Source: a virus (Duplodnaviria > Heunggongvirae > Uroviricota > Caudoviricetes). From it: DNA of 30,660 bases. Positions 12,496 through 30,125 of this stretch are shown piece after piece. The notes under the pieces are model-generated. The model had not been told where the DNA came from, did not search any database, and saw only the letters and a program-made list of their open reading frames with translations. Where the stretch lies: IMG/VR virus record IMGVR_UViG_2585427784_000002; one strand, 5' to 3'. The stretch's first letter is position 1. Every line of letters starts with the position of its first letter. The translations under genes and the position numbers were made by a program.

Positions 12496-12540
12496 TTCGT
12501 AATGCGAAGGTCGTAGGTTCGACTCCTATTATCGGCACCA
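12496..12540 (+). tRNA. 3' portion (anticodon loop to CCA end, about 45 nt) of a tRNA-Thr(CGU) (thrW/ptwF-like); not a complete tRNA; functions as attL
   Basis: TTCGTAATGCGAAGGTCGTAGGTTCGACTCCTATTATCGGCACCA matches the 3' half of E. coli tRNA-Thr including T-arm GGTTCGACTCC and CCA end; upstream sequence does not encode the D-arm or acceptor 5' strand. Confidence 0.8.
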
Positions 12541-12542
12541 TT
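12524..12542 (+). repeat. attL core, TCCTATTATCGGCACCATT, direct repeat of attR at 30108-30125
   Basis: Same 19-bp sequence (one G missing at attR) occurs at 30108-30125, bracketing the integrase-to-iteron element. Confidence 0.75.
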
Positions 12543-12653
12543 CAAACATCTCCCCAAGTCTACTAAAGTCTTTCAAAACCCCTTATAATCCACGTATTAA
12601 AGCCCCGTTCGTCTTTTGACGTCTACTAAAGTCCCTCAAAATCTACGGTCAGA

Positions 12654-12704
12654 TGGGGGTACTTATGGGGGTATTTGCTGTTCGGTTTAGTGGAGGTACC
12701 CCCA
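12654..12704 (+). promoter_or_regulatory. Cluster of GGGGGTA(C/T) motifs (two direct, one inverted) just upstream of int; candidate integrase arm-type binding sites
   Basis: GGGGGTACTTATGGGGGTAT at 12654-12673 and GGTACCCCC at about 12693-12701; a near-identical GGGGGTACTTTTGGGGGTAT occurs at 30026-30045 near attR. Confidence 0.5.
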
Positions 12705-12705
12705 A

Positions 12706-13920
12706 GTGAAACTCAATGCCCGTCAAATAGACACAGCCAAGCCAAAAGAGAAGGCTTACAAGCTGGCCGATGGTGGCGGTTTGTATCTCTTGGTAAAACC
12801 TAATGGAGGTAAATACTGGCGACTTAAATATCGTGTAGCTGGTAAAGAGAAGCTATTGGCACTAGGTGTGTATCCTGAGGTTACTCTAGCCGATGCTCGG
12901 GCAAAACGTGAAGATGCGAAAAGAGGTATCGCTGGTGGTATCGATCCGATGGAAGCGAAACGAGAGGAAAAGATTGCCCGGGAAACGCAGTTAAACAACA
13001 CCTTCAAAGATATTGCCCTTGAGTGGCACAGCAGCAAATTAAAAAAATGGTCTGCTGGTTATGCTTCAGACATCCTCGAAGCCTTCAACAAAGATGTGTT
13101 CCCTTACATTGGCAAAAAACCAATCGCCGAAATCAAACCACTTGAACTTCTGAATGTGCTGCGGCGCATCGAGGGGCGCGGTGCGACAGAAAAAGCCAAA
13201 AAAGTGAGGCAGCGGTGCGGGGAAGTTTTCCGCTATGCAATAGTCACTGGTCGCGCAGAGTATAACCCTGCACCAGACCTTACTAGCGCGATGCAAGGCC
13301 ATGAATCTAATCATTACCCTTTCCTTACGACCAAAGAATTACCTGATTTTTTCAAGGCATTGTCCAGTTACTCAGGAAGCGCATTGGTTGTTATGGCGGC
13401 TCGTCTACTGATTATCACCGGCTTGCGAACTGGCGAACTACGTGGCGCATTATGGGATGAAATTGATTTCAACAAGGCTATATGGGAGATACCCGCTTCA
13501 CGTATGAAAATGCGGCGGCCTCATATTGTGCCATTGTCTGAGCAGGCTCTTTCGCTTATTGGGAAGATTAGAGAAATAACAGGCAATTACCCTCTTATGT
13601 TTCCCGGGCGCAATGATCCAAGGAAAACAATGAGTGAGGCCAGCATAAACCAAGTGTTTAAGCGCATTGGCTACGCTGGACGTGTAACTGGTCATGGGTT
13701 CCGACACACTATGAGCACGATTTTGCATGAGCAGGGCTATAACACCGCGTGGATAGAAACGCAGCTCGCTCACGTTGATAAGAACTCAATTCGTGGCACA
13801 TACAACCATGCGCAATATCTGGATGGACGGCGGGAGATGCTTCAATGGTATGCCGACTATATGGATTCTCTCGAGCATGGCGGAAATGTGGTGCATATGG
13901 TGTTTGAAAAACACGCATGA
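12706..13920 (+). CDS. P4-type tyrosine integrase (404 aa), tRNA-adjacent
   Basis: N-terminal DUF4102-like region (MKLNARQIDTAKPKEKAYKLADGGGLYLLVKPNGGKYWRLKYR), box I Arg (IITGLRTGELRGALWDEID), HGFRHT box II, C-terminal Tyr region; immediately downstream of the tRNA 3' fragment. Confidence 0.92.
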   Translation: MKLNARQIDTAKPKEKAYKLADGGGLYLLVKPNGGKYWRLKYRVAGKEKLLALGVYPEVTLADARAKREDAKRGIAGGIDPMEAKREEKIARETQLNNTFKDIALEWHSSKLKKWSAGYASDILEAFNKDVFPYIGKKPIAEIKPLELLNVLRRIEGRGATEKAKKVRQRCGEVFRYAIVTGRAEYNPAPDLTSAMQGHESNHYPFLTTKELPDFFKALSSYSGSALVVMAARLLIITGLRTGELRGALWDEIDFNKAIWEIPASRMKMRRPHIVPLSEQALSLIGKIREITGNYPLMFPGRNDPRKTMSEASINQVFKRIGYAGRVTGHGFRHTMSTILHEQGYNTAWIETQLAHVDKNSIRGTYNHAQYLDGRREMLQWYADYMDSLEHGGNVVHMVFEKHA

Positions 13921-14347
13921 AACAACTGGACAAGTATACAGAGGTTTACTAAAGTATAGGGGAGTAGATTGATAAAAACTCACAGAGGATTGCTATTTAA
14001 CAGTTAGCCCTGGAGAAGGGCAATCGCTCTTTTATAAACGAAGGTGTATTGAGCCTTCTACGCTGCTGAAAAGCGGAATGTTCTTTAACAGGCTTTGGCG
14101 CTGACAAAGCGCAATTGTTCTTTAACACTACTGGATGTCACGCCTAATAGCGTGATCCTGCCGAAATGCAGGGTAGCTCTACCCTTGTGGAGCAAACAAA
14201 CCAAAACAATCTGACTATCTTTTATAAAAGACCGCAATATGTTTTTCATATTGTGGTCTTTGGCGTATTCGACATTTGACGCAAATAAAACTCTCGCCAT
14301 TCGTTGCAGGAGGGGGTTATTGCGTCATTAGTACAGGATATTAATAA

Positions 14348-14551
14348 ATGGCTAATTACAATTCATTAATTCGTCTCTCTGAAGTTCAAAGGCGAACTGG
14401 TTATAGCAAAGCATGGATTTATCGTCTTATTAGTCAGGGGAGGTTCCCTAAACAGGTAAAAATTGGAAGTCGGGCAATTGCTTTTGTTGAGTCTGAAATA
14501 GATGAATGGATTGAGAAGTGTATATTAGAATCTAGAGACGAGGTGGCCTGA
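14348..14551 (+). CDS. AlpA-family phage transcriptional regulator / excisionase-like (67 aa)
   Basis: MANYNSLIRLSEVQRRTGYSKAWIYRLISQGRFPKQVKIGSRAIAFVESEIDEWI is the AlpA/P4 Vis-type HTH pattern; ATGA overlap with the next gene. Confidence 0.85.
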   Translation: MANYNSLIRLSEVQRRTGYSKAWIYRLISQGRFPKQVKIGSRAIAFVESEIDEWIEKCILESRDEVA

Positions 14552-14982
14552 TGGAAAAGAAAAACCGCCCATTACAGGCGGCTAATTCAGATATTCGCGT
14601 ATCTGACATTACGCCCCTTACAAAATCCCTTCAAGCACCAAAGCGCACACCGAAAAAGCATCGTGCCCGAGTCTATATGCTGCGTACTGGTATAGAGGGA
14701 TGGACAGAAAATGACATTCTTCGCTACTGCCGTCTGTCTTCTGGTCGTAACTATGCAACAGAGTTAGAACGCCAGCTTGGAATCACTCTGGAGCGTATCG
14801 ACGAAAAGAATCCTGATGGTATCGGAACACACCTTCGCTACCGTTTCTCCTGCCGTGGTGATGTTCTGAAAGTGATCACTCATGTTAACTATCTTGCGAG
14901 CATAAATGATCACAACGGACTTTCTCAGCAGGAAATTACCGACATTCTGAAACTCTACCCGGACGCGTTTAACGCCGCCTAA
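14551..14982 (+). CDS. Hypothetical protein (143 aa)
   Basis: ORF translationally coupled to alpA-like gene; no family recognised. Confidence 0.55.
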   Translation: MEKKNRPLQAANSDIRVSDITPLTKSLQAPKRTPKKHRARVYMLRTGIEGWTENDILRYCRLSSGRNYATELERQLGITLERIDEKNPDGIGTHLRYRFSCRGDVLKVITHVNYLASINDHNGLSQQEITDILKLYPDAFNAA

Positions 14983-14994
14983 CGGAGACTGAAA

Positions 14995-15828
14995 ATGAAC
15001 ATCGAAAAAAGCAGATTAATTTCTGAGGCCGCCCCTCATCTGAACGCCTCTCTGGGCACAATTAACGGTAATGAATTTGCCGCAATTGTCCCGGTTATTC
15101 CTGGTCACATCGGTGGGCGTGAAACCAATATTGTTAGCGCAAAAGCGTTACACAAAGCGTTGGGCGTGGGAAAAGACTTCTCTACATGGATCACTGATCG
15201 CATCTCTGAATATGACTTCACCATTGGGCACGATTACTCAGTCCATAAAACAATTTCCCCAAATTTGGGGAAAAGCCCGAATGGCGCGGCTTACAGCAAG
15301 ATTAAGCAGTCTGGCAGACCCGGCAAAGACTATCTGTTAAGTGTCGGAATGGCGAAAGAACTGGCAATGATCGAACGCAATGATCAGGGTCGCGCTATCC
15401 GTCGTTATTTCATCCAGTGCGAGGAAGAATTACAGCGTAGCGTGCCTGAAATCGCCGCCCGCTATCGTCGCCAGCTAAAAGCCCGTATCAGTGCCGCAAA
15501 CAACTTTAAGCCAATGTGCGATGCGCTGAATATGGCCCGTGCCGAGCAGGGGAAAACGACGCAGCAACACCACTACACAAATGAGAGCAATATGATTTCT
15601 CGTATCGTTCTTGGAGGGCTAACTGCTAAGCAGTGGGCGCGGATAAATGGCTATTCTGGCGAACCTCGCGACCATATGAACGCAGAACAGCTTGAGCACC
15701 TCTCATATCTCGAAAGCACCAATATCACGTTAATTGATATGGGCATGGAATATGAGCAGCGCAAAGGAGAACTCACCCGCCTGTCGCAACGCTGGCTCGC
15801 CAAGCGTCTGGAGGCGGTCCATGTTTAA
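14995..15828 (+). CDS. Phage antirepressor/regulatory protein, Rha/AntA/Bro-N-like N-terminal domain (277 aa)
   Basis: N-terminal segment ...NIVSAKALHKALGVGKDFSTWITDRISEYDFTIGHDYSV... matches the phage regulatory (Rha/antirepressor) domain pattern. Confidence 0.6.
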   Translation: MNIEKSRLISEAAPHLNASLGTINGNEFAAIVPVIPGHIGGRETNIVSAKALHKALGVGKDFSTWITDRISEYDFTIGHDYSVHKTISPNLGKSPNGAAYSKIKQSGRPGKDYLLSVGMAKELAMIERNDQGRAIRRYFIQCEEELQRSVPEIAARYRRQLKARISAANNFKPMCDALNMARAEQGKTTQQHHYTNESNMISRIVLGGLTAKQWARINGYSGEPRDHMNAEQLEHLSYLESTNITLIDMGMEYEQRKGELTRLSQRWLAKRLEAVHV

Positions 15829-16003
15829 GCCGACAGGAACACCACAACCTCAAAAACGCTACAAAGATGCCCACGGAGCACTCGTTACTGTCGAAAGCGT
15901 GTCTCACAACCGAGTGACGTTTTATCGCGACGGGTATCAATCGCCATGCGTACAACCGCTGGCGCGCTTCATGAAGGAGTTCGCGGAGGTTAACAAATGC
16001 TAA
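15821..16003 (+). CDS. Small phage protein, DUF4222-like (60 aa)
   Basis: GGAGG RBS 6 nt upstream of ATG at 15821; start overlaps the previous stop (translational coupling). Family assignment tentative. Confidence 0.55.
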   Translation: MFKPTGTPQPQKRYKDAHGALVTVESVSHNRVTFYRDGYQSPCVQPLARFMKEFAEVNKC

Positions 16004-17064
16004 CCGTCCAGAAGAAGATATTTTCACTGGCTGGTATGTCGCCAAAATCCAGCAATATGACAGCAAAGTCTGGCATTAATACAGCAGATACAAGCAAAGT
16101 TTATCATTTTCTGGTGGTAGGAGCGGATGCCTTAACTATGTCAGAAATTACGGTCGATGGTGTTAGCGTTGAGAAGGTCGGCGGCTGCGCCAGAGAATTT
16201 CTGGTCGTAGATGGCTTTCTCTGCTCGCGTAGTGACTCCACAAAAACCTTCGTCCACACGCGCGACGTTAACGAAATGAGCGCGATGTATTGTGCATCTG
16301 GTGCTTCCAATAGTGAGTTTTCGGAGTCCATAAAAAAGAGCTTGCCGTTATGCGGCAACACGGTTTATGGTTATAAGGCACCTCATAAAACGGGTGCCGG
16401 GATTGGCGTCCTGGTAAATCGAATGGCGACATATGACGCGCCGAGCGTCTTTTTTTATGTCGTAGGTCTGACTCACCAATTTTTTGGGCGTTGGTGTATA
16501 ATCCAGCGCCTTTGTCAATCAATGGTGGCTCAGGCAGGGGCTTCTTCGGAAGCGCCGGTATCCATTCGAGCCGGTTACGCCAACCCTGTCTGGGCTACCA
16601 CCAGCGAAATTGGCGTTTCCGGTGGTAGCGTTACATGCTATCGAATGGAGGCTGCCACATGCTGGCTACTACCCCTACCCAAAAACCGCAATTTATCTGG
16701 ATTATCGCCGCAGTTCGCCGCGATTGCCCGACAATTACCGCCAAAATTCATCATATTGCTGCCGAGTCTGAACGCGATGCTCGCCGTTCTCTGGTGCGCG
16801 ATCACGTCTGCTTTTTTGCTGGTCGTATCCGCATGGAGGTGGCACATGATTAAAACCTACGATGTGCATATGGATCCCCTCGAACGCACAAGCCAGATCA
16901 TCACACTGACAGAAGTGATTAACGACATTCTGGTGAGCAACTCTCCCTCACGAGACGAAAGACTGAAGGCGTTACTCGCGATATTGGATCTCGCCGTTCG
17001 TGACGTTCATTTCCTGCTGGAAGGTGGCGAAATGCCAGGAAAAACGGGGGCAACCAATGAATAA
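15997..17064 (+). CDS. Hypothetical protein; the frame is open for 355 codons but the 3' extent is uncertain because two shorter RBS-preceded genes are nested in or appended to it
   Basis: GGAGG RBS 8 nt upstream of ATG at 15997 and overlap with previous stop support the start; no stop until 17064. Confidence 0.4.
16659..16853 (+). CDS. Host cell-division inhibitor Icd-like protein (64 aa)
   Basis: [64 protein letters not shown] resembles the Icd-like small proteins of P4-type elements (conserved FFAGRI region); GGAGG RBS 7 nt upstream; lies in a different frame inside the 355-codon ORF. Confidence 0.55.
   Translation: MLATTPTQKPQFIWIIAAVRRDCPTITAKIHHIAAESERDARRSLVRDHVCFFAGRIRMEVAHD
16846..17064 (+). 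CDS. Hypothetical small protein (72 aa)
   Basis: GGAGGTGG RBS upstream of ATG at 16846; ATGATTAA overlap with the Icd-like stop; same frame as the tail of the 355-codon ORF. Confidence 0.5.
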   Translation: MIKTYDVHMDPLERTSQIITLTEVINDILVSNSPSRDERLKALLAILDLAVRDVHFLLEGGEMPGKTGATNE

Positions 17065-17251
17065 CTCAATTAATGCCCCTCGACTTACGTCCGCACTTCA
17101 ATTAATCGAGCAAGCAGCGGCTGTCCTGGTTGCTGTCAGTCTTTCGGCTGAAGAAATGGACGCTGCTGATGTCGTGGATGCGATTAAAGCGTGCTCATCT
17201 TTGGTTAACGATGCCCGTGCAGAGCTGGTAATTCTTGGGGGTGAAAAATGA
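17057..17251 (+). CDS. Hypothetical small protein (64 aa)
   Basis: Start overlaps preceding stop (ATGAATAA); part of the coupled operon. Confidence 0.5.
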   Translation: MNNSINAPRLTSALQLIEQAAAVLVAVSLSAEEMDAADVVDAIKACSSLVNDARAELVILGGEK

Positions 17252-17511
17252 ATATCAACTTAATTTATCGTCATCCGTGTGAGCTGGAAATTGAATCATT
17301 GCTGAGTCGTGAAGAGCTATATCCAGACACATTCACTCTTGCAGATCGCACGACTGAACGGCTTACCAGAGCGCGCACAGGTCTGGTTCATGTGATGAAT
17401 GAGATTCTTCCATCGGTGGGAGGGGAACAGGCGACAGTAATCAATAGCTGGCTACAAAAAGTTACCTCCCTGATAGATATCAGTTTAATCGATGCGGAGA
17501 GTGCGAAATGA
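17248..17511 (+). CDS. Hypothetical small protein (87 aa)
   Basis: ATGA overlap with both neighbours; part of the coupled operon. Confidence 0.55.
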   Translation: MNINLIYRHPCELEIESLLSREELYPDTFTLADRTTERLTRARTGLVHVMNEILPSVGGEQATVINSWLQKVTSLIDISLIDAESAK

Positions 17512-17729
17512 CCAACATCCAGCTCATTGAAGCGCAATGTCGCATCGAACAGGTTCAGACTGTTTTAGGGTTCTGGCTTGAAGGGGCCAGCCCCAGCAAC
17601 AGAGACAAGTTAATGATTGGCGCGGTTATGTCACTGCTCAATGGCGTACCAGAAGCTATTCAGGAAGCAGACGAATTGTTGGGCAAATATGAGTTACAGA
17701 ATCATTCAGGCGAGGCGAAACATGAATAA
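17508..17729 (+). CDS. Hypothetical small protein (73 aa)
   Basis: ATGA overlap with upstream gene; part of the coupled operon. Confidence 0.55.
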   Translation: MTNIQLIEAQCRIEQVQTVLGFWLEGASPSNRDKLMIGAVMSLLNGVPEAIQEADELLGKYELQNHSGEAKHE

Positions 17730-18324
17730 TTTCTTAACCTTCCATGCAGAAGCAACGCCTGACGGCGTAAACATCATGCACCGCAGCAACGATGGCATGA
17801 CAGAACGCGTTGAGACCGTTTCATATATTGATGCCGTAAATCGTCTGGATGCCGGGGATTATGACGATAAACCAGATGAAGGTATGTCAATACATCTCGC
17901 TATTGCCGATGGCGGCAACCAGGGATATTTCGATTACACATCACAGCATAACGTCATTATGTGGAGATGGCTGATCGCAACAGTATTCATGCTGGAAATG
18001 AGAGAGGAAAACGGCACTGTCAGCATCATTGATGATACTGGCAATCCTTCCGAAGTGGCTGTTTATTCCAACGGCATCGTCGCCATGCCGCTGTATCCAG
18101 TAGCAGAGCGCCTCGCTATGGCAAACAACATTGAGGGCGCGATGATAGAACGTTTTGGCATCGAGTCTGGCACAGAACGCGCCATCATTTTCTACAGAGC
18201 CATGATGGATGTGGAACAAGGAGCACTGACTCCATTTGGTCGTGAAACGCTTGCTGAACTTCACAACAGCTTTATAGCTGAACTGAATGAAAACGGCATG
18301 CCAGCGGAACCAGTGACGCACTGA
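17722..18324 (+). CDS. Hypothetical protein (200 aa; start taken at the internal Met of the 235-codon ORF)
   Basis: GAGG RBS upstream of ATG 17722, which overlaps the upstream stop; the alternative start at 17617 would overlap the previous gene by 113 bp. Confidence 0.55.
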   Translation: MNNFLTFHAEATPDGVNIMHRSNDGMTERVETVSYIDAVNRLDAGDYDDKPDEGMSIHLAIADGGNQGYFDYTSQHNVIMWRWLIATVFMLEMREENGTVSIIDDTGNPSEVAVYSNGIVAMPLYPVAERLAMANNIEGAMIERFGIESGTERAIIFYRAMMDVEQGALTPFGRETLAELHNSFIAELNENGMPAEPVTH

Positions 18325-18334
18325 GGATGGATCC

Positions 18335-18676
18335 ATGATTACTAAAAATTTCCGACTGAATGCGCTGGCAAATAAGTATGCGTCGGCACTGTATAACCAC
18401 ATTACCTCCACCAGCGGCGGGGACTATTTCATGGTTGATGCGGACGGCGAGGCCGTCCGTGTGGAAATCGTCAATGGAGTAAAAGGCGTTCGCAGCCTGA
18501 TCGATAGCTACACACTGGCAGCCATGAAAGTGTTCTACCCGCAGTGGGAAACCGTGGGGATAGAGCTTCTTGATCGTTGCGTCACTAAGGACGGATTGAC
18601 TGACGTCGGGCGTGAGATATGGCAAAGCATGGTTAATGACATGGGCGCAACTGTAGCGGGAGGTTCTCATGCGTGA
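18335..18676 (+). CDS. Hypothetical protein (113 aa)
   Basis: ORF in the coupled operon just upstream of the primase; no family recognised. Confidence 0.55.
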   Translation: MITKNFRLNALANKYASALYNHITSTSGGDYFMVDADGEAVRVEIVNGVKGVRSLIDSYTLAAMKVFYPQWETVGIELLDRCVTKDGLTDVGREIWQSMVNDMGATVAGGSHA

Positions 18677-19040
18677 AAATGCAGAAATGGCGCTTAGCTC
18701 CGCAATCGGAGAGCAGGTGGCAAAGATTGCTGGCGCTGTGTGGATTCATAACCTTCATTCTACTGGTGAAGAGAAAATGGCAATTCAGACGCCAGAGGGA
18801 CGCACCATTACTACATCTCTGAAGGTGTCAGATGTTTGTGATCTGATTTGCGCATTCATGTACCCAGCAATGAGGACTGTCCACGGCGATAAGTGGAAAC
18901 TTGCGACAACCGCTGAATTTGATATGTGGCTAAACAATGATGGCATGCTGACTGATTACGGAATAACCAAGTGGCAGATGCTGGTTAGCCATATCGCAAA
19001 CGCTATAGACCACGTGGGGTACGGTGATGCGAAACATTGA
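18669..19040 (+). CDS. Hypothetical protein (123 aa)
   Basis: Overlaps neighbours at both ends; part of the coupled operon. Confidence 0.55.
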   Translation: MRENAEMALSSAIGEQVAKIAGAVWIHNLHSTGEEKMAIQTPEGRTITTSLKVSDVCDLICAFMYPAMRTVHGDKWKLATTAEFDMWLNNDGMLTDYGITKWQMLVSHIANAIDHVGYGDAKH

Positions 19041-21919: not shown

Positions 21920-22241
21920 ACAATGTGACTGAATTGATGCGCACAACACCTGGCTGGCATCAGAGAGTGTTTTACGAGACTTTCGTAAAATCCTGTGTAC
22001 AAGGGCGTGACGTTTTTGAAAGTGAGCACTACGAAATTTTCGTAGTTCAGAAAACAGCCCCTGAGAAGTTGTTATGCCTGTTCAGCAAATCATCCGCATA
22101 GCTGATCGCGAATCAAATTACCAATGGAGCCAGAAGCAAGGGCAGAACTGAAAAGCGCCTGCCGTGAAGAGTAATGCGACACCATAAATATAGTTTTTAG
22201 AGTCCATAAAAAACCTGTCAAAACCTGACACACAGAACGAT

Positions 22242-22272
22242 GCCACCAGCTACTGAGCGGTGGCATTTTTTT
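22242..22272 (+). terminator. Rho-independent terminator (GCCACC...GGTGGC stem followed by ATTTTTTT)
   Basis: 6-bp GC stem with 11-nt loop followed by a 7-T run at 22266-22272. Confidence 0.65.
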
Positions 22273-22332
22273 GTGCTATCTGTTTCATATTTTGCAATTA
22301 CGATGATGAATATTGCGATTTGTGAAACTATA

Positions 22333-22356
22333 ATAACTGTTGTTTTATACAGTTAT
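22333..22356. promoter_or_regulatory. Palindromic operator-like site ATAACTGT-N8-ACAGTTAT overlapping a TATAAT -10-like hexamer, upstream of a small ORF
   Basis: Perfect 8-bp inverted repeat arms with 8-bp spacer; TATAAT at 22328-22333; AAGGGGG RBS and ATG at 22368 follow. Confidence 0.5.
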
Positions 22357-22367
22357 AAGGGGGCGTT

Positions 22368-22529
22368 ATGGCTATTTCAGTAAAGCCGGTATTGATAAGT
22401 GAGAAGCAAATGGAAGCGATAAAGAAAATTCAGGAAGAGCAGCGTAAAAAATCAGGAATTGGAGTAGCGCCAACTCTGCATGAAATTGCACGAGGGTTAA
22501 TAGATAAGGCGCTGGCAGGCTGTATGTGA
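22368..22529 (+). CDS. Small putative DNA-binding regulator (53 aa; possibly ribbon-helix-helix-like)
   Basis: Strong RBS (AAGGGGG) 7 nt upstream; palindromic operator immediately upstream; short protein MAISVKPVLISEKQMEAIKKIQEEQRKK... Below the ORF-track length cut-off, found by reading. Confidence 0.45.
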   Translation: MAISVKPVLISEKQMEAIKKIQEEQRKKSGIGVAPTLHEIARGLIDKALAGCM

Positions 22530-22545
22530 AAATGGATGGCATCGC

Positions 22546-23007
22546 ATGGAACTAAAATTTATTGATAACCCTGTGCGATTACAGGCCTTTCTTAACGAGC
22601 CTGGCAATACCGAAAATATTGTTGAGCCGGGGCACACGTACTACATCAAGCCTGATGCGGTATATCTCGGTATCTACGAAGGATTGGTGCTGGCTGGCGT
22701 TCATGAAGTGCGTAACTTCTGGCATAGCATTGTTGAATGCCATGCGGTGTACGACCCCGGATTCCGTGGTGAATATGCACTACAAGGGCATCGATTATTC
22801 TGCAAATGGCTTCTCGAAAACTCACCATTCCTTAACAGCATCACCATGGTTCCTGACACAACGAAATACGGACGGGCAATTATCCGTTTGCTTGGCGCTA
22901 CCCGTGTTGGTCACCTTGATGATGCTTATATCAGATGTGGTAAACCCGTCGGCGTAACGCTTTATCAGTTAACTCGGCAACAATATAAGGAATTCAGCGA
23001 ATGTTAA
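22546..23007 (+). CDS. Hypothetical protein (153 aa); by position possibly the podovirus gp14-like gene preceding the ejection-protein genes
   Basis: ORF directly upstream of and overlapping the next gene's start; family not recognised from sequence. Confidence 0.5.
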   Translation: MELKFIDNPVRLQAFLNEPGNTENIVEPGHTYYIKPDAVYLGIYEGLVLAGVHEVRNFWHSIVECHAVYDPGFRGEYALQGHRLFCKWLLENSPFLNSITMVPDTTKYGRAIIRLLGATRVGHLDDAYIRCGKPVGVTLYQLTRQQYKEFSEC

Positions 23008-23678
23008 TTACCCATATAGCTCATAAATATCTCAATCGTGCCGTATACGAAAAAGGCGGTGATGGTGGTGCCTCTAAAGCTCAGGCGAAGGCCCAGCAGC
23101 AGGCAATTGATTTGCAGCGCGAGCAGTGGAATACGGTGATGAATAATCTCAAGCCGTATGCAGAAGTCGGATTGCCTGCTTTACAACAACTACAAGGACT
23201 GATGACTCTGGAAGGGCAGAATAAAGCCGCGAATGATTTCTTTGGTTCTGGTTTATATAAAACACAGGCAGATCAGGCCCGTTATCAGAACCTTGTCTCA
23301 GCAGAAGCTACCGGGGGGCTTGGCACAACAGCTACCAGTAACCAGTTATCTTCCATTGCGCCCATGCTTTATAACAATTGGCTCAGTGGGCAAATGCAAA
23401 ATTATGGAAACCTGCTAAATGTCGGGATGAATGCGGCATCAGGGCAGGCAACAGCAGGGCAAAACTACGCCAATAATACCGGACAACTCTTGCAGGGGCT
23501 TGGCGCTATTCGTGCAGGTCAGGCGCAGCAGCCATCCAGTCTTGCGCGTGGTATTGGTGGGGCGGCATCAGGCGCTTTAGCGGGTGCGCAACTTGGTTCC
23601 GTTGTTCCGGGTATAGGTAATGTCGCCGGGGCTATTGGTGGTGGGCTTATTGGTCTTGTTGGGGGGCTTGGATTCTAA
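23001..23678 (+). CDS. Q/A/G-rich protein with glycine-zipper C-terminus (225 aa); candidate P22 gp7-like ejection (DNA-transfer) protein
   Basis: N-terminal ...YEKGGDGGASKAQAKAQQQAIDLQREQW..., extensive Gln/Ala/Gly low complexity, C-terminal GxxxG-rich hydrophobic tail (GIGGAASGALAGAQLGSVVPGIGNVAGAIGGGLIGLVGGLGF); size and position match gp7 of P22-like phages (from memory). Confidence 0.45.
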   Translation: MLITHIAHKYLNRAVYEKGGDGGASKAQAKAQQQAIDLQREQWNTVMNNLKPYAEVGLPALQQLQGLMTLEGQNKAANDFFGSGLYKTQADQARYQNLVSAEATGGLGTTATSNQLSSIAPMLYNNWLSGQMQNYGNLLNVGMNAASGQATAGQNYANNTGQLLQGLGAIRAGQAQQPSSLARGIGGAASGALAGAQLGSVVPGIGNVAGAIGGGLIGLVGGLGF

Positions 23679-25099
23679 TGGCGACATGGCAACTTGGCGG
23701 GCTGCCTAGCATGGCACCGCAAAATGATAATGCTCCTCGTTCTTCCGTTCCTCAGCCTGTGCAGTATCAGCAGCAGCCAAACGTAGGTTTAATGGCGCTA
23801 CAGGGGCTAAGAGGCGTTGCTGAGATTAATCAGCAGGCACGTCAACAACAGCGTAAAGCAGAGTTTCAGAAAGCATATGCCGGGGCTTTTGAGTCTGGAG
23901 ACAGAAACAAAATGCGCAGTCTTATTTCTGAGTATCCAGAAGAATTTGAAAGCGTTCAGAAAGGGATGGGCTTTATTGATGACGACCAGAGAAATTCTAT
24001 TGGTCATCTTGCGACTAGTGCTCAAATCGCATCTTCGCTCGGAACTGGGGCATTTGGAAAATTCATAGCAGATAACGAAGATGAAATGCGTCGCTTGGGA
24101 ATTTCTCCTGAGTCTGTTGCCGAAATGCATGTTAATGATCCACAGGAATTCCAGCGGCTTGCTGGTAGTATGGCACTGTTTTCTCTCGGTCATGAGAAGT
24201 ACTTCGATATCAAAGATCGAATGGAAGGTCGGGATATTGAGCGTGGCAAGTTGGCAGAGACAATCCGCAGCAATCAGGCTGGAGAGGCGCTTCAGGCGAG
24301 AGGGCAGGATATTAGCCGAGCAAATGCGTTAACGTCAGCATATGCACCAACAGCCGCAATGCAGAATTACAATCAGTACGCGCAAATGTTAAAGGCGGAT
24401 CCAGAGGGGGCAGCGGCATTTGCGGCAGCGGCTGGAATTAATACAAACGCCAAAAAATTAATGAGTGTTAGGGAAAACGATGATGGCACTGTCACAAAAT
24501 ACTACACAGACGGAAGTGAAGAGCAGGGAAAACTCACCCAGCCAATATCTGGAGATGGGTTTCGTCCAATAGCTTTGCCAACAGCCCAAAAGATCATGGA
24601 AAAGTCGCCAGAAGGGGCTAAAAAAGCTGCTGGATTTGCATACAGGGTTAGGGATGCTCTTGATTCAATAGATACACTGAGAGACCAGCTTAGCCCACAG
24701 CGAGTGGCGATCATTAATAATGCTTTGGGTAATGGGACGCTGGCTAACTTAACGCTCAGCCCAACAGAGCAGCAATACGTTGTTAATGCTAATGACGCAA
24801 TAATGGCAATACTCCGTCAGGAAACAGGGGCAGCTATCGCACCTGCTGAAATGTCAAAATATTATCAAATGTATTTCCCTCAGCCTGGCGACTCCACAAA
24901 AACCATTGATACCAAGCGCCGGAAGATGGAAAACCAGTTCAATTCGCTGAAAGCTGCTTCTGGTCGAGCTTATGATGCTTTGCGGGTTATTTCAGCAGTT
25001 GACAGAGGAACTTCTTCTTCGTCGCAGACATTGCCGCAATCTGAGCAGGTATCACAGCCAGCAGCCAGCAGTAACTTTTCTTCACTATGGGGTGATTAA
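23678..25099 (+). CDS. Q/A-rich protein (473 aa); candidate P22 gp20-like ejection (DNA-transfer) protein
   Basis: Start overlaps previous stop (TAATG); low-complexity Gln/Ala-rich composition; size close to P22 gp20 (about 471 aa, from memory). Confidence 0.45.
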   Translation: MATWQLGGLPSMAPQNDNAPRSSVPQPVQYQQQPNVGLMALQGLRGVAEINQQARQQQRKAEFQKAYAGAFESGDRNKMRSLISEYPEEFESVQKGMGFIDDDQRNSIGHLATSAQIASSLGTGAFGKFIADNEDEMRRLGISPESVAEMHVNDPQEFQRLAGSMALFSLGHEKYFDIKDRMEGRDIERGKLAETIRSNQAGEALQARGQDISRANALTSAYAPTAAMQNYNQYAQMLKADPEGAAAFAAAAGINTNAKKLMSVRENDDGTVTKYYTDGSEEQGKLTQPISGDGFRPIALPTAQKIMEKSPEGAKKAAGFAYRVRDALDSIDTLRDQLSPQRVAIINNALGNGTLANLTLSPTEQQYVVNANDAIMAILRQETGAAIAPAEMSKYYQMYFPQPGDSTKTIDTKRRKMENQFNSLKAASGRAYDALRVISAVDRGTSSSSQTLPQSEQVSQPAASSNFSSLWGD

Positions 25100-27204
25100 T
25101 GGCTAAAGCATGGAAAGATGTTATCGCCTCTCCACAGTATCAGGCGTTAGCACCAGAACAAAAAGCGCAGGCTCAGGAGCAATACTTCAATGAAGTCGTG
25201 GCCCCGCAAGCCGGAGAAAGTGTAGAGCAGGCTAAGCAGGCTTTTTATGCTGCCTATCCACTACCATCAACGAATGAAATAGACCGATCCCAATCAGCAA
25301 CTCAAAATATTCAACATACATCATCTGATAATTCTCTTGCGTCAGGGTATGCAAAGTTAGCTACTCAGCAAAGAGAGGGGCTTGAGCGTTCAGCAGAACA
25401 GGGAGCCAGTCTTGGGGCTGCGATGCGCGATGCTATAACAGGCGAAAGCCGAATGACTCCAGAGATGGAGAGACTGCAAAATGTCGCCTCTGCCCCAGAA
25501 TTGAACTCACTAAGCATGGATGCCCTAAAGGCTGGATGGTCTCAACTTTTCGGCTCTGACGCGTCTCAGGAAAAGATTCTTCAGGGAATGGGGGCGACAT
25601 TAAGGCAGGATGAGAAGGGGAATACTATCGTTTCTCTGCCATCAGGTGATTATGCCCTGAACAAGCCGGGTTTATCACCGCAAGACCTGACTTCGTTTCT
25701 TGCTAATGCGTTGGCGTTTACACCAGCGGGCAGGGCTGGAACGGTGCTTGGTGCCATAGGAAAATCAGCAGCTACAGATTTAGCACTACAGGGAGCCACC
25801 AGCCTTGCTGGTGGAGAAGATATTGATCCGTTACAAACGGTAATTTCTGCTGGCATTGGTGGTATTGGTAAGGGGCTGGAAAATACAGCGAGTGCGGTTT
25901 CGAGGGCTGTTCGTGGTGATATGTCGCCTGAAGCAAAGGCTGCTGTCGACTTTGCATCGGAAAGAAATCTGCCGTTAATGACCAGTGACATGCTGAAAGA
26001 TAAAACCTTTATGCAGAGTCAGGCTCAGACATTAGGCGAAAGAGTTCCTTTTTTTGGAACCGGTAAGAATCGGCTGAATCAACAACAAGCACGAGAAAAT
26101 TTAGTCAGAACATTTAGCGATGGTCTGGGTGGCATTTCTGATAAACAGCTTTATGAATCTGCGACTAAAGGGCAACAAAAATTCATTGAGGCAGCAGGAA
26201 AGCGATATAACCGCATAATTGACGCTATGGGGGATACCCCTGTCGATCTCTCAAACACGGTAAAAGCTATCGACAATCAGATTGCCGTGTTAAGCCGCCC
26301 GGGCAAATCTCAGGATAGAGCCGCGGTAAAAGTCTTGCAGCAATTTAAAGACGATATCACCAGCGGACCAAATGACCTGCGTCTGGCGAGGGAAAACAGA
26401 ACCGATCTTCGAAAGCGATTTATGGCGTCATCTGACACTGTTGATAAAGATACGCTCCAGAAAGCCAGCGATATTATCTACAAGGCATATACGGCGGATA
26501 TGAAAAAAGCCGTAGCCAAAAATCTTGGAGCAGACGAAGCCATTAATATGGCAAGGGTTGATCGCTCATGGTCTAAATTCAATGACATGATGGGAAGAAC
26601 GCGCGTTCAAAAGGCAATAGCCAGCGGCAAGGCCACGCCTGAGGATGTAACAAAACTCGTTTTTAGCCAAAGCCCATCAGAACGTTCTCAGCTTTACAGG
26701 CTTCTGGATGACAATGGTAGGCAAAACGCACGAGCAGCCATAGTTCAGAATGCTGTAGATAAGGCGACTGATCCGTCTGGAAATATCAGTGTCGAGAAGT
26801 TTATTAATGCGTTACACCGGAACAGGAAGCAATCAGCAACTTTCTTTAAAGGCGTACATGGAAAGGAACTGGACGGCGTTATTAAATACCTCAACGATAC
26901 AAGACACGCGGCAAAAGCGAACGTTCAAAACTTAAATGGTCAGCAGCTTTATGGATTGTTAGTTGGTGGTGGCATCATAAACGCAGCAGTATTAGCGGGG
27001 ATGCTAAAAACGGCTGCGTTTGTTGTTCCTGCTGCTGGTGCCGTAGGCGGAGCAGCGAAGGCATACGAAAGCCCTGTTATACGAAATGCCTTGTTACGTC
27101 TGGCAAATACGCCAAAAGGTAGCACAGCATATGACAGAGCGATCAGTACGGTCACACAATCGCTCACCAGAGTCGCACAGGCATCACAAAAAGAAGCTCA
27201 ATAA
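25099..27204 (+). CDS. Q/A/G-rich protein (701 aa) with hydrophobic Gly/Ala-rich segment near the C-terminus; candidate P22 gp16-like ejection protein
   Basis: Start overlaps previous stop (TAATG); GGGVTGA-type RBS; composition similar to the two preceding proteins; third member of a 7-20-16-like trio. Confidence 0.45.
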   Translation: MAKAWKDVIASPQYQALAPEQKAQAQEQYFNEVVAPQAGESVEQAKQAFYAAYPLPSTNEIDRSQSATQNIQHTSSDNSLASGYAKLATQQREGLERSAEQGASLGAAMRDAITGESRMTPEMERLQNVASAPELNSLSMDALKAGWSQLFGSDASQEKILQGMGATLRQDEKGNTIVSLPSGDYALNKPGLSPQDLTSFLANALAFTPAGRAGTVLGAIGKSAATDLALQGATSLAGGEDIDPLQTVISAGIGGIGKGLENTASAVSRAVRGDMSPEAKAAVDFASERNLPLMTSDMLKDKTFMQSQAQTLGERVPFFGTGKNRLNQQQARENLVRTFSDGLGGISDKQLYESATKGQQKFIEAAGKRYNRIIDAMGDTPVDLSNTVKAIDNQIAVLSRPGKSQDRAAVKVLQQFKDDITSGPNDLRLARENRTDLRKRFMASSDTVDKDTLQKASDIIYKAYTADMKKAVAKNLGADEAINMARVDRSWSKFNDMMGRTRVQKAIASGKATPEDVTKLVFSQSPSERSQLYRLLDDNGRQNARAAIVQNAVDKATDPSGNISVEKFINALHRNRKQSATFFKGVHGKELDGVIKYLNDTRHAAKANVQNLNGQQLYGLLVGGGIINAAVLAGMLKTAAFVVPAAGAVGGAAKAYESPVIRNALLRLANTPKGSTAYDRAISTVTQSLTRVAQASQKEAQ

Positions 27205-27222
27205 CTGGTTAGCCATGGATGG

Positions 27223-27642
27223 CTAATTTTTGTTCTTTGCTCTCATCCATAGGTAAAGAAGGGAAAGAACAAGACAAAAAACAGAGAATAGATAACCTAC
27301 CTCATATGGTGCGCCAAAAAAATTAGCTATTGATACGGGCAAAAAAGCTGAAGCGATCAAAATTGAAAGGCAAAAAATAAGCCCAGTAATATAGTTTATT
27401 AAATTCTTAAATGAGAAATGTTTTGCTTGATTTACGGTCTTAGCGAATGATCGCTTAACGACGGATAAAAGCAAATAGATGGCGACAGTTGCTAATGCCC
27501 CTTTCCACCAATCTGGATATAGTTTTGCGACAATCAGACCAAGGAAAACCATGATGACAGCCTGAGCATTCACACCAACCCTCCCTTTAGCGTTGTTTAG
27601 AATGGCAATCATCATATATCCAAGACATGGCATTTGGTACAT
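27223..27642 (-). CDS. Small polytopic inner-membrane protein (about 130-139 aa, 3-4 predicted TM helices) in a visibly AT-rich segment; candidate superinfection-exclusion/abortive-infection type protein
   Basis: Hydrophobic stretches (MMIAILNNAKGRVGVNAQAVIMVFLGLIVAKL..., ALATVAIYLLLSVV..., ITGLIFCLSILIASAFLPVSIANFF..., YLFSVFCLVLSLLYLW); convergent with the 701-aa gene, 18 bp between stops; no clear RBS so exact start uncertain. Confidence 0.55.
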   Translation of the reverse strand: MYQMPCLGYMMIAILNNAKGRVGVNAQAVIMVFLGLIVAKLYPDWWKGALATVAIYLLLSVVKRSFAKTVNQAKHFSFKNLINYITGLIFCLSILIASAFLPVSIANFFGAPYEVGYLFSVFCLVLSLLYLWMRAKNKN

Positions 27643-28616
27643 AGCTTGGGTCGGGATTTCAAATCCGCTCCCAGTTGATGGGGCCGTTACAGTACGCGCA
27701 TATCCGCTTTATGTGAAACAGGAAGATTTTTCTGATATCACTGCCACAGCAAAACACCAATTTCGAGACAAGTACGCGCACGAGGGGTATCAGTTGCAAA
27801 AAATTTTGCAACTACGTCCGACCAGTATGCACACGATGGCGGGGGGATACCATAAAACTGTTCTCTACATGAGACAGAGTGGTGGTGATGTGTTGATTAT
27901 CGGCGTATATGCGCACAGGACGCGCTATGACGATGTTTTATGCGGGTACACCAATACATGTATCTGGTGTGATAAATCGCGTTACATGACCTCTCATGTT
28001 GTGCTGGTGGTTATCACGACGTTCTGAATCTGGCCTTTGCCTGGTATTTTGCGACAAGTACGCGCGCGTAGCATCGAAATAATCGGATGGCGTATGCTGC
28101 TGGTAATATGAAGACCGATAGCATTAACCGAAAGGAGAAAGACTTCTCGATAACGGCAAGATCGCGGCAAGGGGGCTGAATTGCGAGGCGAGATTAAGCA
28201 ACTGTCTTGAACGTAAAAATCATGGAGCAACATGCTGGTACGATTCATTCCATTCTTCGTTCTTTCTGAGCATTGCGTTCAGGCTTAGTCAAAATTAGTG
28301 TTGCGAGCGGACCTATTAGTAATTGTTAGTGCGATGCGTCTGTTATGGATTGTTATGCCTGTGGCAGGCCTGATTAATATCCAGTATGACCACCAGCTAT
28401 GAGAGGCCACCTCAGTGGTTCGCAGTTGCAGGTTTGCACTCAGGTTCGCAGGGTTTTGGCTACTTTCACGTGCGAACCTGCAGAATTGCAAAGGACAACT
28501 AAGTCCTCTGGCCAACTCCCGGTTTATGAGCGACACAGTCCGCCTGGCGCATCGTTTTCGTCGAGTGCGCCCATCAGCTTGTCCATGGACTATCCACCAC
28601 TCGATATTAAAGCTAA

Positions 28617-28802
28617 TCATTGGTTGCCAGCCCGCGAATCAAGTTTGTTCTGGATCCAAGCTTCAACCTCCTCAAGCGACCATCTAGCTGATCTACCAAT
28701 TTTAACTGGCTGTGGAAACGTGCCCGTCTTAACCCATGAGTAGATTGCCGTTTTCTTGAAGCCCGTTCTGAGCATGACTTCGCTTAATTTGATAAGGCGC
28801 AT
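28617..28802 (-). CDS. Second AlpA-family regulator (61 aa)
   Basis: MRLIKLSEVMLRTGFKKTAIYSWVKTGTFPQPVKIGRSARWSLEEVEAWI is the AlpA-type HTH pattern; GAGGAG-like RBS upstream on the minus strand. Confidence 0.8.
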   Translation of the reverse strand: MRLIKLSEVMLRTGFKKTAIYSWVKTGTFPQPVKIGRSARWSLEEVEAWIQNKLDSRAGNQ

Positions 28803-29053
28803 AGAGGCTCCTCTGCTTTAGATTAAGCATAGTGACAATCTGGCTTTGTGCGGTATCCAAAAGCGAGGTATCCATGTTGGTATCCACCAAAACGCTGTTT
28901 ACCAAAAAAGTTACCACCGGAACAGGACATTTTGAGCTGTAACTTAACACATAGCATATGGAGTTCACGCATAGACTTCACGCACAACGGCTCCGGCCAG
29001 AGAAGAATCACCCTGGCTGGCAATATAATGCCGATCACCATCAGAGGGGAATC

Positions 29054-29246
29054 CATGACACCACGAGAAATCGAGCTGCTGACCATTGCCAAGCTGGAGC
29101 ATGACGGCTACCAGCTCAGCCCGGCAGAACTGCGGGAATTAAGGCGCCAGCTGGCAGAGGGCCCTGTAATAGCCAGGCGGTACCGCGCAATGATGACCAG
29201 CCCCACATATCGCTGGAGCAAACCAGCGCCGCTCCGTGCGCGGTGA
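29054..29246 (+). CDS. Hypothetical small protein (64 aa; start at the internal Met of the 132-codon ORF)
   Basis: GAGGGG RBS about 6 nt upstream of ATG 29054; upstream part of the longer ORF is compositionally non-protein-like and overlapped by other ORFs. Confidence 0.35.
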
Positions 29247-29320
29247 GCAGCACCTAACCAGCACTAGACAAGCCCTGTGCTGGTGGATGTCCCTCATAAT
29301 TAGCGGTTTTTAAACGGCGT

Positions 29321-29441
29321 GTTGGTTCACGGCCTCTTTTTGTTGGTTCAAAAATGGGGTGTGTTGGTTCACTTTTTGCGAATAATCCTTTTAAAAACAA
29401 TACTCTTTACAAATTGAACCAACTGAACCAACTGAACCAAC
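29321..29441. repeat. Second iteron cluster: 3 spaced GTTGGTTCA, AT-rich spacer, 3 tandem inverted TGAACCAAC
   Basis: Same 9-bp iteron as at 21809-21919; the block from about 29382 to 29432 is the reverse complement of about 21819-21870, including the spacer segment AATTTGTAAAGAGTATT. Confidence 0.75.
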
Positions 29442-29477
29442 ACCTTTTTGCTTATCTATATAGTCTGAGAGGCAGAA

Positions 29478-29765
29478 ATGATAAGAGACAGGAAAGCTGA
29501 AGAGCTGGAGTCAAAAAGGCTATGCCGGAGAGCTGCCACACGATGGGCAGAAGTCATGACGCTGGCAGATGGCAATAAAGAACGTGAACATGCAGCAAAC
29601 AGACGCTCTGAATGTATCCGTAGGGCGGCACGCCCACCAGCAACTACAGACAGATTCGGAGATTTAAGACAGGCAGTTAAGCGGACTCATTCGGCTCTTG
29701 GTATGGATGAGGAAGCGAGAGGGTACTTCAGGCGTTATCGCGATAAAGATTGCCAGAGACAGTAA
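29478..29765 (+). CDS. Small basic protein (95 aa), possibly nucleic-acid binding
   Basis: GAGAGG RBS about 5 nt upstream; Arg-rich sequence (RRAATRW..., RRSECIRRAARPP..., RRYRDKD); located between the second iteron cluster and attR. Confidence 0.5.
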   Translation: MIRDRKAEELESKRLCRRAATRWAEVMTLADGNKEREHAANRRSECIRRAARPPATTDRFGDLRQAVKRTHSALGMDEEARGYFRRYRDKDCQRQ

Positions 29766-30107
29766 TGCTCTCTCTGTTTTGGCAAATTACCCCTCACTTT
29801 GAAGGGATCGGAGCTATAAAAATGGTGTTATCCGGCTTCCTGCATTGCAGGTTTTCAAAAGAATCAATGGGTTAGGTCATCGTGCAAATTTGCACTCTGC
29901 CATCCAACGCAATTTCTCGTTGGCGGAAATATCAGGTATTTACTGAACGAACGGCCTACCCGCCTGTTCAACTACCAGTTGTACATGGCTGCTTTATGTG
30001 CAAATGGTGGTGAGAGAAAATTGTTTGGGGGTACTTTTGGGGGTATCTCCAAAGATGTAATGGGAAAATGTCTTTATATATCAATGTATTTTTATTGTTT
30101 GTTTTGT

Positions 30108-30125
30108 TCCTATTATCGCACCATT
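30108..30125 (+). repeat. attR, TCCTATTATCGCACCATT, imperfect direct repeat of the tRNA-Thr 3' end at attL
   Basis: 18 of 19 positions identical to 12524-12542 (one G deleted); the GGGGGTACTTTTGGGGGTAT motif lies about 65 bp inside. Confidence 0.75.

Follow-up and report, generated by a model that had tools for sequence, protein, structure and literature searches.

What is the segment that lies between a partial tRNA-Thr gene and yagP in the viral record IMGVR_UViG_2585427784_000002, and by what means did it come to be there? The whole stretch of DNA analysed, 30,660 nucleotides (nt) in length, is referred to here as the window. Positions 12524-30107 of the window are a discrete mobile element of 17,584 bp, measured from core to core. 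From its sequence we identify the element, which the initial annotation of this DNA had left unnamed, as a variant of EcCIMP1, a satellite of P22-like phages that is classed as a phage-inducible chromosomal island (PICI). It is very probable that 12524-30107 is an EcCIMP1-family PICI, integrated by its own IntS/P4-type integrase (Int) at the 3' sequence of tRNA-Thr(CGU).

The initial annotation had described a discrete integrative element of about 17.6 kb with a duplicated attachment (att) core, and this description is borne out, with empty sites rejoining at the core. The 19-bp core TCCTATTATCGGCACCATT that it placed at 12524-12542 (plus strand) is read directly there as the attL core, and the recurrence it claimed at 30108-30125 (plus strand) is present as the attR core TCCTATTATCGCACCATT, which is TCCTATTATCGGCACCATT minus one G. 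An attP junction that carries GG, together with the allele tallies given below, supports a chromosomal origin for the part of attR that lies right of the exchange point. The attL core is made up of the last base of the T loop, the 3' strand of the T stem, the 3' strand of the acceptor stem, ACCA, and 2 further nt, and may be compared with the published EcCIMP1 core, TCCTATTATC (PMC11773190). It overlaps a 46-nt 3' fragment of tRNA-Thr(CGU) at 12495-12540 (plus strand), which was defined by alignment to the intact thrW of strains 1223 and PigCaeca_2 and extends from the base 5' of the anticodon loop to CCA. The initial annotation was correct in that only the 3' end of the tRNA gene is present, but the length is 46 nt and the start lies at 12495 and not at 12496. 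ARAGORN called no tRNA anywhere in the window. The fragment is the bacterial (B) side of the attL of the satellite.

Comparison of occupied and unoccupied sites fixes the boundaries at this core. Of the ~4,000 E. coli genomes with a match to the right flank, most have one that begins at window 30108, and in strain 1223 the site is unoccupied, with thrW followed directly by the yagP flank. An alignment to K-12 had been proposed as a check, and in it both strain 1223 and the ptwF-yagP region of K-12 match attL at the left and attR at the right, with the switch inside the core; in a seven-way alignment, both sides change from shared to unshared sequence within the core. In Cn5 and FG92-1, the end of the prophage that precedes the element in the window, and the same 46-nt tRNA fragment, are joined straight to yagP with nothing between. 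In PigCaeca_2 and MP1, the same element adjoins intact thrW. At least 80% of the element is found in 146 of 5,426 complete E. coli genomes, and the junction between prophage end and element seen in the window is common to seven genomes. K-12 and other strains were also checked for a contiguous sequence in which the repeats do not act as boundaries; unoccupied sites rejoin exactly at window 30108. Because the right-flank matches start at this position and the unoccupied sites switch inside the core, the boundary is biological and not statistical. Base composition does not mark the boundaries of the element.

EcCIMP1 is a 19,963-bp PICI of E. coli MP1, located at the tRNA-Thr gene between proA and yagU (Pick, Stadel & Raivio, ISME J 2025; PMC11773190; GenBank OR778291). 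It excises and circularises only with the P22-like phage Kapi1, which transduces it, and both excision and transfer require int and the int-proximal alpA (PMC11773190). Window 12495-23838 is 98.3% identical in nt sequence to the MP1 locus over 11,362 bp, and from int to gp7 the proteins match those of EcCIMP1 at 97-100% identity in 16 of 17 cases (Int 99.5%, AlpA 100%, primase 99.3%, gp14 98.7%, and gp7 99.6%), with Ash at 86%. Integration at the 3' end of tRNA-Thr(CGU) and a flanking direct repeat of TCCTATTATC are likewise found here. The int gene (12706-13920, plus strand) encodes a tyrosine integrase of 404 amino acids (aa) that is 49% identical to the IntS of KplE1 and has the Pfam domains Arm-DNA-bind_3 (E = 1e-28), Phage_int_M, and Phage_integrase, a set that characterizes the IntS/P4 group. 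The 67-aa AlpA (14348-14551, plus strand; Pfam Phage_AlpA, E = 7e-20) is the counterpart of the protein needed for EcCIMP1 excision and transfer (PMC11773190). Further right, gp20 aligns with its EcCIMP1 counterpart in the N-terminal 187 residues only (49%), gp16 gives no alignment, and PerC is 49% identical. Since gp20, gp16, and the right end diverge, the element in the window is an EcCIMP1-like variant in which the gp20/gp16 module has been swapped and the accessory end is another one.

How the integrase recognizes this site is suggested by short motifs inside the two ends. The initial annotation had noted matching motifs, GGGGGTACTTATGGGGGTAT at 12655-12674 and GGGGGTACTTTTGGGGGTAT at 30027-30046, both of which are read directly, and its view that they are of arm type is now supported by covariation and matching geometry. 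The 20-mer has only these two matches in the window when three mismatches are allowed, and none of 100 shuffles gave any. The shorter motif GGGGGTAY has six copies in the window against 0.75 expected, five of which sit at the two ends. On the left, 12655-12674 (plus strand) contains the tandem sites P'1 and P'2, GGGGGTAC and GGGGGTAT, with 12 nt between their starts and an offset of 131 nt from the core start. Overlooked by the earlier reader, a further copy in inverted orientation (12696-12703, minus strand) overlaps the int Shine-Dalgarno sequence GGAGG (12692-12696) and lies 2 nt before the GTG start. On the right, 30027-30046 (plus strand) contains two tandem P-arm sites, 12 nt apart and 81 nt before the attR core. 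Predicted arm sites in both arms, with one overlapping the int ribosome-binding site (RBS), are again as in the IntS/P4 group, by sequence, geometry, and covariation. This layout recurs in all four EcCIMP1-like copies examined, each with two direct sites at +131 from the attL core start, an inverted site over the int RBS, and two direct sites at -81 of the attR core.

More distant relatives vary the motif and keep the geometry. The 49-kb thrW island of MS 196-1 carries unrelated cargo, and its left end, comprising attL and int, is ~72% identical in nt sequence; here the offsets of +131 and -81 are exactly kept at the two ends, with GGGGGCAT standing in for GGGGGTAY there and in the inverted copy. 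The integrase relatives were surveyed at 80 loci from different Enterobacterales species, 72 of which have two motif copies exactly 12 nt apart and an inverted copy upstream of the int start (3 nt or less in most). Their motifs fall into at least five classes, GGGGGTA, GGGGGCA(T/C), GTGTATAG, TTGTATAG, and GGGGGCC; the class shifts with the clade and the 12-nt spacing is constant. The relatives lie at a nearly constant distance of ~165 nt downstream of tRNA-Thr, -Arg, -Gly, -SeC, -Ser, or -Phe, and this distance is 165 nt in the window; those with integrases at least 71% identical are all at tRNA-Thr(CGU). On account of the four-copy layout, the covariation in MS 196-1, and the geometry at the 80 loci, which that of KplE1 also matches, we read the GGGGGTAY motifs as the arm-type sites of the integrase. 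In the IntS-TorI system of KplE1, IntS acts as repressor of its own gene, the promoter of which is overlapped by arm-type sites (Panis et al., PLoS Genet 2010; PMC2951348), and because of this precedent the inverted site at 12696-12703 is likely to be a site of Int autorepression. A promoter and terminator consensus scan of the attL-int-alpA region gave nothing above shuffled background.

A second class of repeats lies in the P' arm, between the core and the arm-type sites (12558-12646, plus strand). The 13-bp direct repeats GTCTACTAAAGTC at 12558 and 12621 that had been pointed out earlier are present, and they extend to 21 nt with 90% identity and 63-nt spacing (GTCTACTAAAGTCYYYCAAAA; 12558-12578 and 12621-12641), with an additional ATCTAC at 12641-12646. 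In thrW-linked relatives, the hexamers co-vary at all three positions, being GTCTAC/GTCTAC/ATCTAC or, in one clade, GTCAAC/GTCAAC/ATCAAC. The directionality factor AlpA, or else another factor linked to Int, may bind these repeats. AlpA is put forward as a binder of the GTCTAC repeats because their position between core and arm sites matches that of the TorI sites of KplE1; against it, PigCaeca_2 retains the same repeats though its AlpA is only 76% identical.

The attL core has GG where attR has a single G, and this difference helps to locate the point of strand exchange. A pattern search for a P-arm/core/P'-arm arrangement yielded one IMG/VR contig, reading ...GTGTATTG TTCCTATTATCGGCACCATT CAAACATC... 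and then int. This attP-type junction comes from a close relative of the element and carries GG, so that exchange probably lies left of the G/GG indel, within TCCTATTATCG, whether the contig represents a circle or a tandem dimer. The G-CACCATT of attR would therefore be derived from the chromosome. Identity between att sites usually spans from the exchange point to the 3' end of the tRNA, and a chromosome-derived G in attR fits this rule. Placement of the exchange to the right of the indel, inside CACCATT and with the element carrying the single G, was favoured at first, on the grounds that attR is single-G in both yagP and vat-island contexts and in the best 60 of the 88 genomes with a window-type right end. 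It was rejected on account of the GG of the attP junction, the GG attR of CP53, and the existence of an unoccupied single-G full-length thrW, and also because in the MS 196-1 island it would leave the exchange with just 5 nt of common sequence.

The unoccupied single-G site is that of strain SW070919, whose thrW lacks one G and measures 74 nt by ARAGORN and 75 nt in RefSeq, compared with 76 nt when intact. Because attR lacks the G, excision from a typical lysogen should leave a 75-nt thrW without one G of the acceptor stem; excision would then leave a damaged thrW, and integration would restore an intact one. A single-G attR is present in all junctions listed, these being the best 60 of the 88 genomes with a window-type right end, and in 38 of the 40 junctions listed for the 187 genomes with an MP1-type right end (CP53 and Z1323CEC0013 have GG). 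It is also present in 30 of 31 metagenome contigs, and the single contig with GG belongs to another element. Sites that are unoccupied or hold only the prophage mostly have GG. The attR of MP1 is single-G, although the vat-island arm that flanks it comes after a GG thrW in clone D i2. A single-G pseudo-tRNA joined straight to yagP is seen in at least 60 genomes. No single-G attL was found among 903 genomes, which is a weak test as nearly all of these attL sites are at a live thrW, and a metagenome scan for attP junctions gave no match. Possible causes of the single-G attR are common descent together with homologous transfer, recurrent deletion after integration, or selection.

Is the element then a satellite? 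It has the general features of a Gram-negative PICI: a size between 10 and 20 kb, att repeats, int followed by a co-directional alpA, and its own replication module, made up of a primase-helicase and iteron clusters with a putative origin function. No capsid, portal, terminase, tail, or lysis gene was found among the open reading frames (ORFs) scanned with Pfam and PHROGs, as is expected of a PICI, and the four genes for internal-virion (ejection) proteins are atypical for one. Downstream of the primase, no family of the packaging-redirection or capsid-remodelling module (Rpp/Ppi/TerS/Cpm) was matched. The authors of the EcCIMP1 study likewise report no such module and placed EcCIMP1 in the SatelliteFinder category 'Type C #var01' (PMC11773190).

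Several points weigh against reading the window as an EcCIMP1-type satellite with this mode of integration. What is said of excision, packaging, and dependence on a helper comes by extrapolation from EcCIMP1, an element with another gp20, gp16, PerC, and right end, and the window contains no P22-like helper. The attL here is a pseudo-tRNA, unlike the live thrW of the experimentally studied EcCIMP1. The proteins that bind the motifs are assigned only by analogy, and the attP evidence is a single contig that may be a tandem dimer and not a circle, with the same consequence for the exchange point either way. Simple repeated integration would not explain a near-universal single-G attR set against empty sites that are mostly GG.

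Some of the same observations would suit an element of this satellite family that is now fixed in place as a static genomic island, which we regard as unlikely. The pseudo-tRNA site points that way, as does the G missing from attR, which lies right of the exchange region and possibly in a core-binding site of Int. In the divergent island of MS 196-1, 4 nt are deleted at the position of this G, and a Kapi1-like prophage is present in just 2 of 21 EcCIMP1-carrying strains (PMC11773190). Yet EcCIMP1 shares the single-G attR and still excises and transfers (PMC11773190), all ORFs of the element are full length relative to their relatives, and the 46-nt tRNA fragment holds the entire core along with 28 nt to its left.

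There is little to recommend the idea that the element is no helper-dependent satellite but the remnant of a decayed P22-like prophage that has kept its integration, replication, and ejection genes. Four consecutive homologues of P22 genes 14, 7, 20, and 16 in P22 order are what such a remnant would show, and AntA and C4-icd modules are also known in temperate phages. Random decay, however, would not leave at least 146 genomes with one and the same compact unit of 17-20 kb, bounded each time by the same ends, nor does it sit well with the absence of coat, portal, terminase, tail, and lysis genes from the scanned ORFs. No sequenced phage has ejection alleles more than 68% identical to those found here, and the 98%-identical EcCIMP1 is mobilised only when Kapi1 is present (PMC11773190).

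A P4-type satellite exploiting a P2-like helper is a very remote prospect, for all that the element has a P4/IntS-group integrase, an AlpA/Vis-like protein, a C4/CI-type immunity RNA upstream of the operon of its TOPRIM primase-helicase, and two inverted iteron clusters that recall the ori and crr of P4. No homologue of Sid, Psu, or Delta was detected in any ORF at E <= 0.01 with Pfam or PHROG profiles, and membership among P4-like satellites was rejected on this basis. The virion-related genes are P22-type and not P2-type, and a P22-like podovirus is what has been proven to act as helper for the close relative (PMC11773190). Finally, the notion that the end repeats arose by chance in a segment of ordinary chromosome, in favour of which there is only the shortness of the core, can be dismissed given the shuffling controls, the presence/absence polymorphism that breaks exactly at the core, and the experimentally mapped homologue EcCIMP1.

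To the right of alpA lies an early or regulatory block (14551-17064, plus strand), assigned by Pfam and by 86-100% identity to EcCIMP1 proteins, which encodes a 143-aa hypothetical protein, an AntA/AntB antirepressor (14995-15828), a DUF4222 protein (15821-16003), and an 'Ash family' ORF (15997-17064). Six small conserved ORFs assigned by homology, including members of phrog_1515 and phrog_37628, follow at 17057-19040 (plus strand). The primase-helicase (19024-21783, plus strand) is 919 aa long from its first start codon and has the Pfam domains Zn-ribbon-Prim, Toprim_3, and DUF927; its RefSeq relatives begin 4 nt later. At the far end, a variable accessory region (27223-29300), assigned by Pfam and by homology to MP1, holds small ORFs that matched no family and a second AlpA/Xis-like gene at 28617-28802 (minus strand) that is the counterpart of EcCIMP1 alpA_1, whose role has been described (PMC11773190). 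PADLOC gave no defence match in the accessory region at 27.2-29.3 kb, in agreement with the EcCIMP1 study (PMC11773190). A 95-aa PerC-family regulator (29478-29765, plus strand; Pfam PerC, E = 1e-28) precedes the P arm.

Two small RNAs are embedded in the 'Ash family' ORF, which, though annotated as 355 aa, possibly does not encode a single protein. The first, at 16378-16455 (plus strand), is isrK-like (Rfam RF01394, 67.1 bits against a gathering score of 50) and holds a C4 target copy, TCGAATGG, at 16419-16426. The second, at 16518-16605 (plus strand), is an antisense RNA of C4/CI type (Rfam RF01695, 79.5 bits against a gathering score of 45), the loop of which, TCCATTCGA (16561-16569), is complementary both to 16419-16426 and to 16641-16649. 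The latter stretch overlaps the Shine-Dalgarno sequence of a small icd-like ORF downstream of C4 (16659-16853, plus strand), the MP1 homologue of which is named 'host cell division inhibitor Icd-like protein' in RefSeq. A Pfam scan of the icd-like ORF and of the small intergenic ORFs gave no match. The arrangement of C4, icd, and isrK is the layout of c4-icd in P1 and of seqA/B/C in P4, and by this analogy the element probably carries an RNA switch of P1/P4 type.

Directly after the primase gene, a first iteron cluster (21802-21923) has six exact copies of GTTGGTTCA, three direct and three inverted, and is a putative origin (ori). A second, crr-like cluster (29319-29448), situated just before perC, also has six exact copies and is the mirror image of the first, with 55-nt arms of the two clusters 98% complementary. 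All 12 exact copies of GTTGGTTCA in the window fall within the two clusters, and when up to one mismatch is allowed the window contains 21 copies, a number that none of 100 shuffles reached. By their resemblance to the ori and crr of P4, the iteron clusters probably serve as the replication origin. The two clusters bracket the ejection-protein and accessory modules.

The ejection-protein cassette (22546-27204, plus strand) follows P22 gene order and is preceded by a 53-aa ORF at 22368-22529 (plus strand). Its members, all on the plus strand, are a gene-14-like DUF2824 gene (22546-23007), gp7 (23001-23678), gp20 (23678-25099), and a gp16-like gene (25099-27204), supported by the Pfam families DUF2824, P22_gp7, and Inj_translocase and by PHROGs 651, 598, 917, and 770. 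The gp16 protein is 67.6% identical to that of phage N7 and gp20 is 52.7% identical to that of APSE phages, and no allele of the cassette exceeds 68% identity to its counterpart in a sequenced phage; the gp16 of EcCIMP1 itself reaches no more than 52% identity with any phage protein in the collection. By these identities, none of the ejection proteins was copied recently from a known phage. We raise, tentatively and with more doubt than belief, the idea that EcCIMP1-type elements are a distinct hybrid class of satellite specialised on P22-like podoviruses, in which ejection proteins of the satellite are loaded into helper capsids. Such a class would combine KplE1/P4-type integration, a C4 switch of P4/P1 type, an ori/crr-like replicon, and a complete P22-type ejection set. 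If this were true, the ejection proteins might deliver the DNA of the satellite or might underlie the superinfection immunity that has been reported for EcCIMP1 and left unexplained (PMC11773190), and allele swaps in gp20 and gp16 would tune which helper or host envelope can be used.

Taken together with what is known of EcCIMP1 and KplE1, these features suggest the following scheme. The catalytic domains of Int would bind the core, and its N-terminal arm-binding domain would bind the two tandem P-arm sites 81 nt to the left of the core and, to the right, the two tandem sites and one inverted site of the P' arm, the first of them 131 nt away. With the inverted site over the int RBS, Int would probably repress its own gene, as KplE1 suggests. 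Strands would be exchanged inside TCCTATTATCG, left of the G/GG indel, as the attP junction implies. Excision is expected to need Int and AlpA and to be triggered by a helper P22-like phage, as has been shown for EcCIMP1 and is applied here by analogy. After excision, the element would be replicated from the iteron clusters by its own primase-helicase. In the integrated state, the C4-type antisense RNA would probably keep the operon from icd to the primase shut. The element also encodes P22-type ejection proteins of its own.

The DNA upstream of the element shows that it is not alone at this locus. Window 1-6127 corresponds to CP4-6 of K-12, comprising IS1C, yagJ to yagN, and the 3' 800 bp of intF. 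The truncated intF (5328-6127) runs straight into the interior of a thrW prophage of yfd type (6124-7953), and at this fusion ptwF, the integrase of the second prophage, and its attL are all gone. From 6124 the sequence is that of a yfd-type defective prophage. FG92-1 has a yfd-type prophage alone at thrW with its own integrase; that of the window has lost the integrase and ~5.8 kb of its interior and has gained IS3 fragments. The tRNA fragment of the window is preceded by sequence other than intF, and its identity to thrW sets in 2 nt further on than that of ptwF. From these alignments, we assign the 46-nt tRNA fragment to the second prophage, the decayed yfd-type one at thrW, as its attR, and not to CP4-6 as its ptwF. 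A sublocation of this kind, with the fragment starting at the base 5' of the anticodon loop, is usual for an integrase class other than that of the element.

The initial annotation had proposed a tandem arrangement at a pseudo-tRNA that it likened to ptwF. The tandem array and the partial tRNA both stand; the fragment, however, is not that of CP4-6, and the array is triple, since the fragment is the attR of a second element and CP4-6 ends in a truncated intF at 6127. Its statement that ptwF of K-12 is followed directly by yagP, which in the window lies just past attR, agrees with the K-12 comparison. Arrival of the satellite first and arrival of the prophage first would both give the same structure, and both single-occupancy states exist: a prophage that inserted into thrW after the satellite would produce what is seen here. 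Either order is consistent with the data, and the use of a pre-existing pseudo-tRNA site cannot be proven.

Other features of the flanks may be recorded here. Between the IS1 copy and yagJ, 424 bp (608-1031) are not found in K-12 MG1655; because a 415-aa ORF (616-1863) spans this stretch, an IS1-adjacent deletion in K-12 is suggested. Short rearranged IS3-family fragments break the prophage remnant at 11387-11891, a position at which the related strain PEC131 has whole copies of IS3 and ISCro1. The decayed prophage also encodes, at 8295-10244 (minus strand), a 649-aa GmrSD-family type IV modification-dependent restriction enzyme (PADLOC mREase_IV, 1440 bits). To the right of attR, the flank at 30126-30146 reads TTTAAATCAATAAGTTAC, differing at three positions from the K-12 type TTAAAATCAAAGAGTTAC. 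The same TTTAAATCAATAAGTTAC follows thrW at the attL of the yfd-type prophage of FG92-1 (15128-15148, minus strand), a match that hints at a past exchange between att flanks.

For annotation, these results mean that the locus is best described as a stack of three elements at thrW (a remnant of CP4-6, the decayed prophage of yfd type, and a PICI of EcCIMP1 type) and not as one 'incomplete prophage'. The element belongs to a published family, and its proposed mechanism is largely carried over from EcCIMP1 and KplE1. Current understanding is not overturned; the comparative results add testable detail. The EcCIMP1 study makes no mention of arm sites, C4/isrK RNAs, iterons, or a full P22-type 14-7-20-16 ejection cassette (PMC11773190), so that what is new relative to it are the arm sites with their conserved geometry, an approximate exchange point, the putative C4/isrK switch, and a likely ori. 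The new predictions are testable in the existing MP1/Kapi1 system. The ejection proteins borne by a satellite and the near-universal attR with its 1-nt deletion stand out for further work.

Among known systems, EcCIMP1 is the closest. The two share the same 3' site in thrW, the core, the arm sites, the single-G attR, and the gene order from int to gp7, as well as the second gene of alpA_1/xis type and a PerC-family gene. They differ in length (19,963 bp against 17.6 kb), in the right end, which here is without pRiA4b-ORF3-like genes, and in attL, which here is a 46-nt pseudo-tRNA behind prophage remnants and in EcCIMP1 lies at a live thrW. KplE1 (CPS-53) offers the closest model for integration. 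Its IntS is homologous and 49% identical, with tRNA, attL, and int in the same orientation; its first P' site lies 131 nt from the core, its two P-arm sites are 12 nt apart and 79 nt before the core, its inverted copies abut the intS ATG, and its int promoter is within attL. Unlike the element, KplE1 is at argW, a tRNA-Arg (CCU) gene, with CTGCAGGGGACACCAT as core and GGGTAAAA as arm motif, encodes TorI at the far end, and has a defective P22/epsilon-like prophage as cargo.

CP4-6 and ptwF of K-12 occupy the same locus, where a partial tRNA-Thr adjoining yagP is again the right end of a thrW-integrated element. With phage P22, the element shares genes 14, 7, 20, and 16 in the same order and with strong Pfam and PHROG matches, but here they are carried by an element without capsid, portal, or tail genes, and the alleles have diverged from those of every phage in the collection. 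P4 combines an Int acting at a tRNA 3' end, Vis, the CI RNA, the alpha primase, and ori/crr. The element resembles it in having an Int that targets a tRNA 3' end, a small regulator of AlpA/Vis type, two separated iteron clusters, and, upstream of the primase operon, a C4/CI-family RNA with complementary targets on both sides. It differs from P4 in being without sid, psu, and delta, in the DUF927 helicase domain, in its P22-type ejection genes, and in a helper family that is P22-like.

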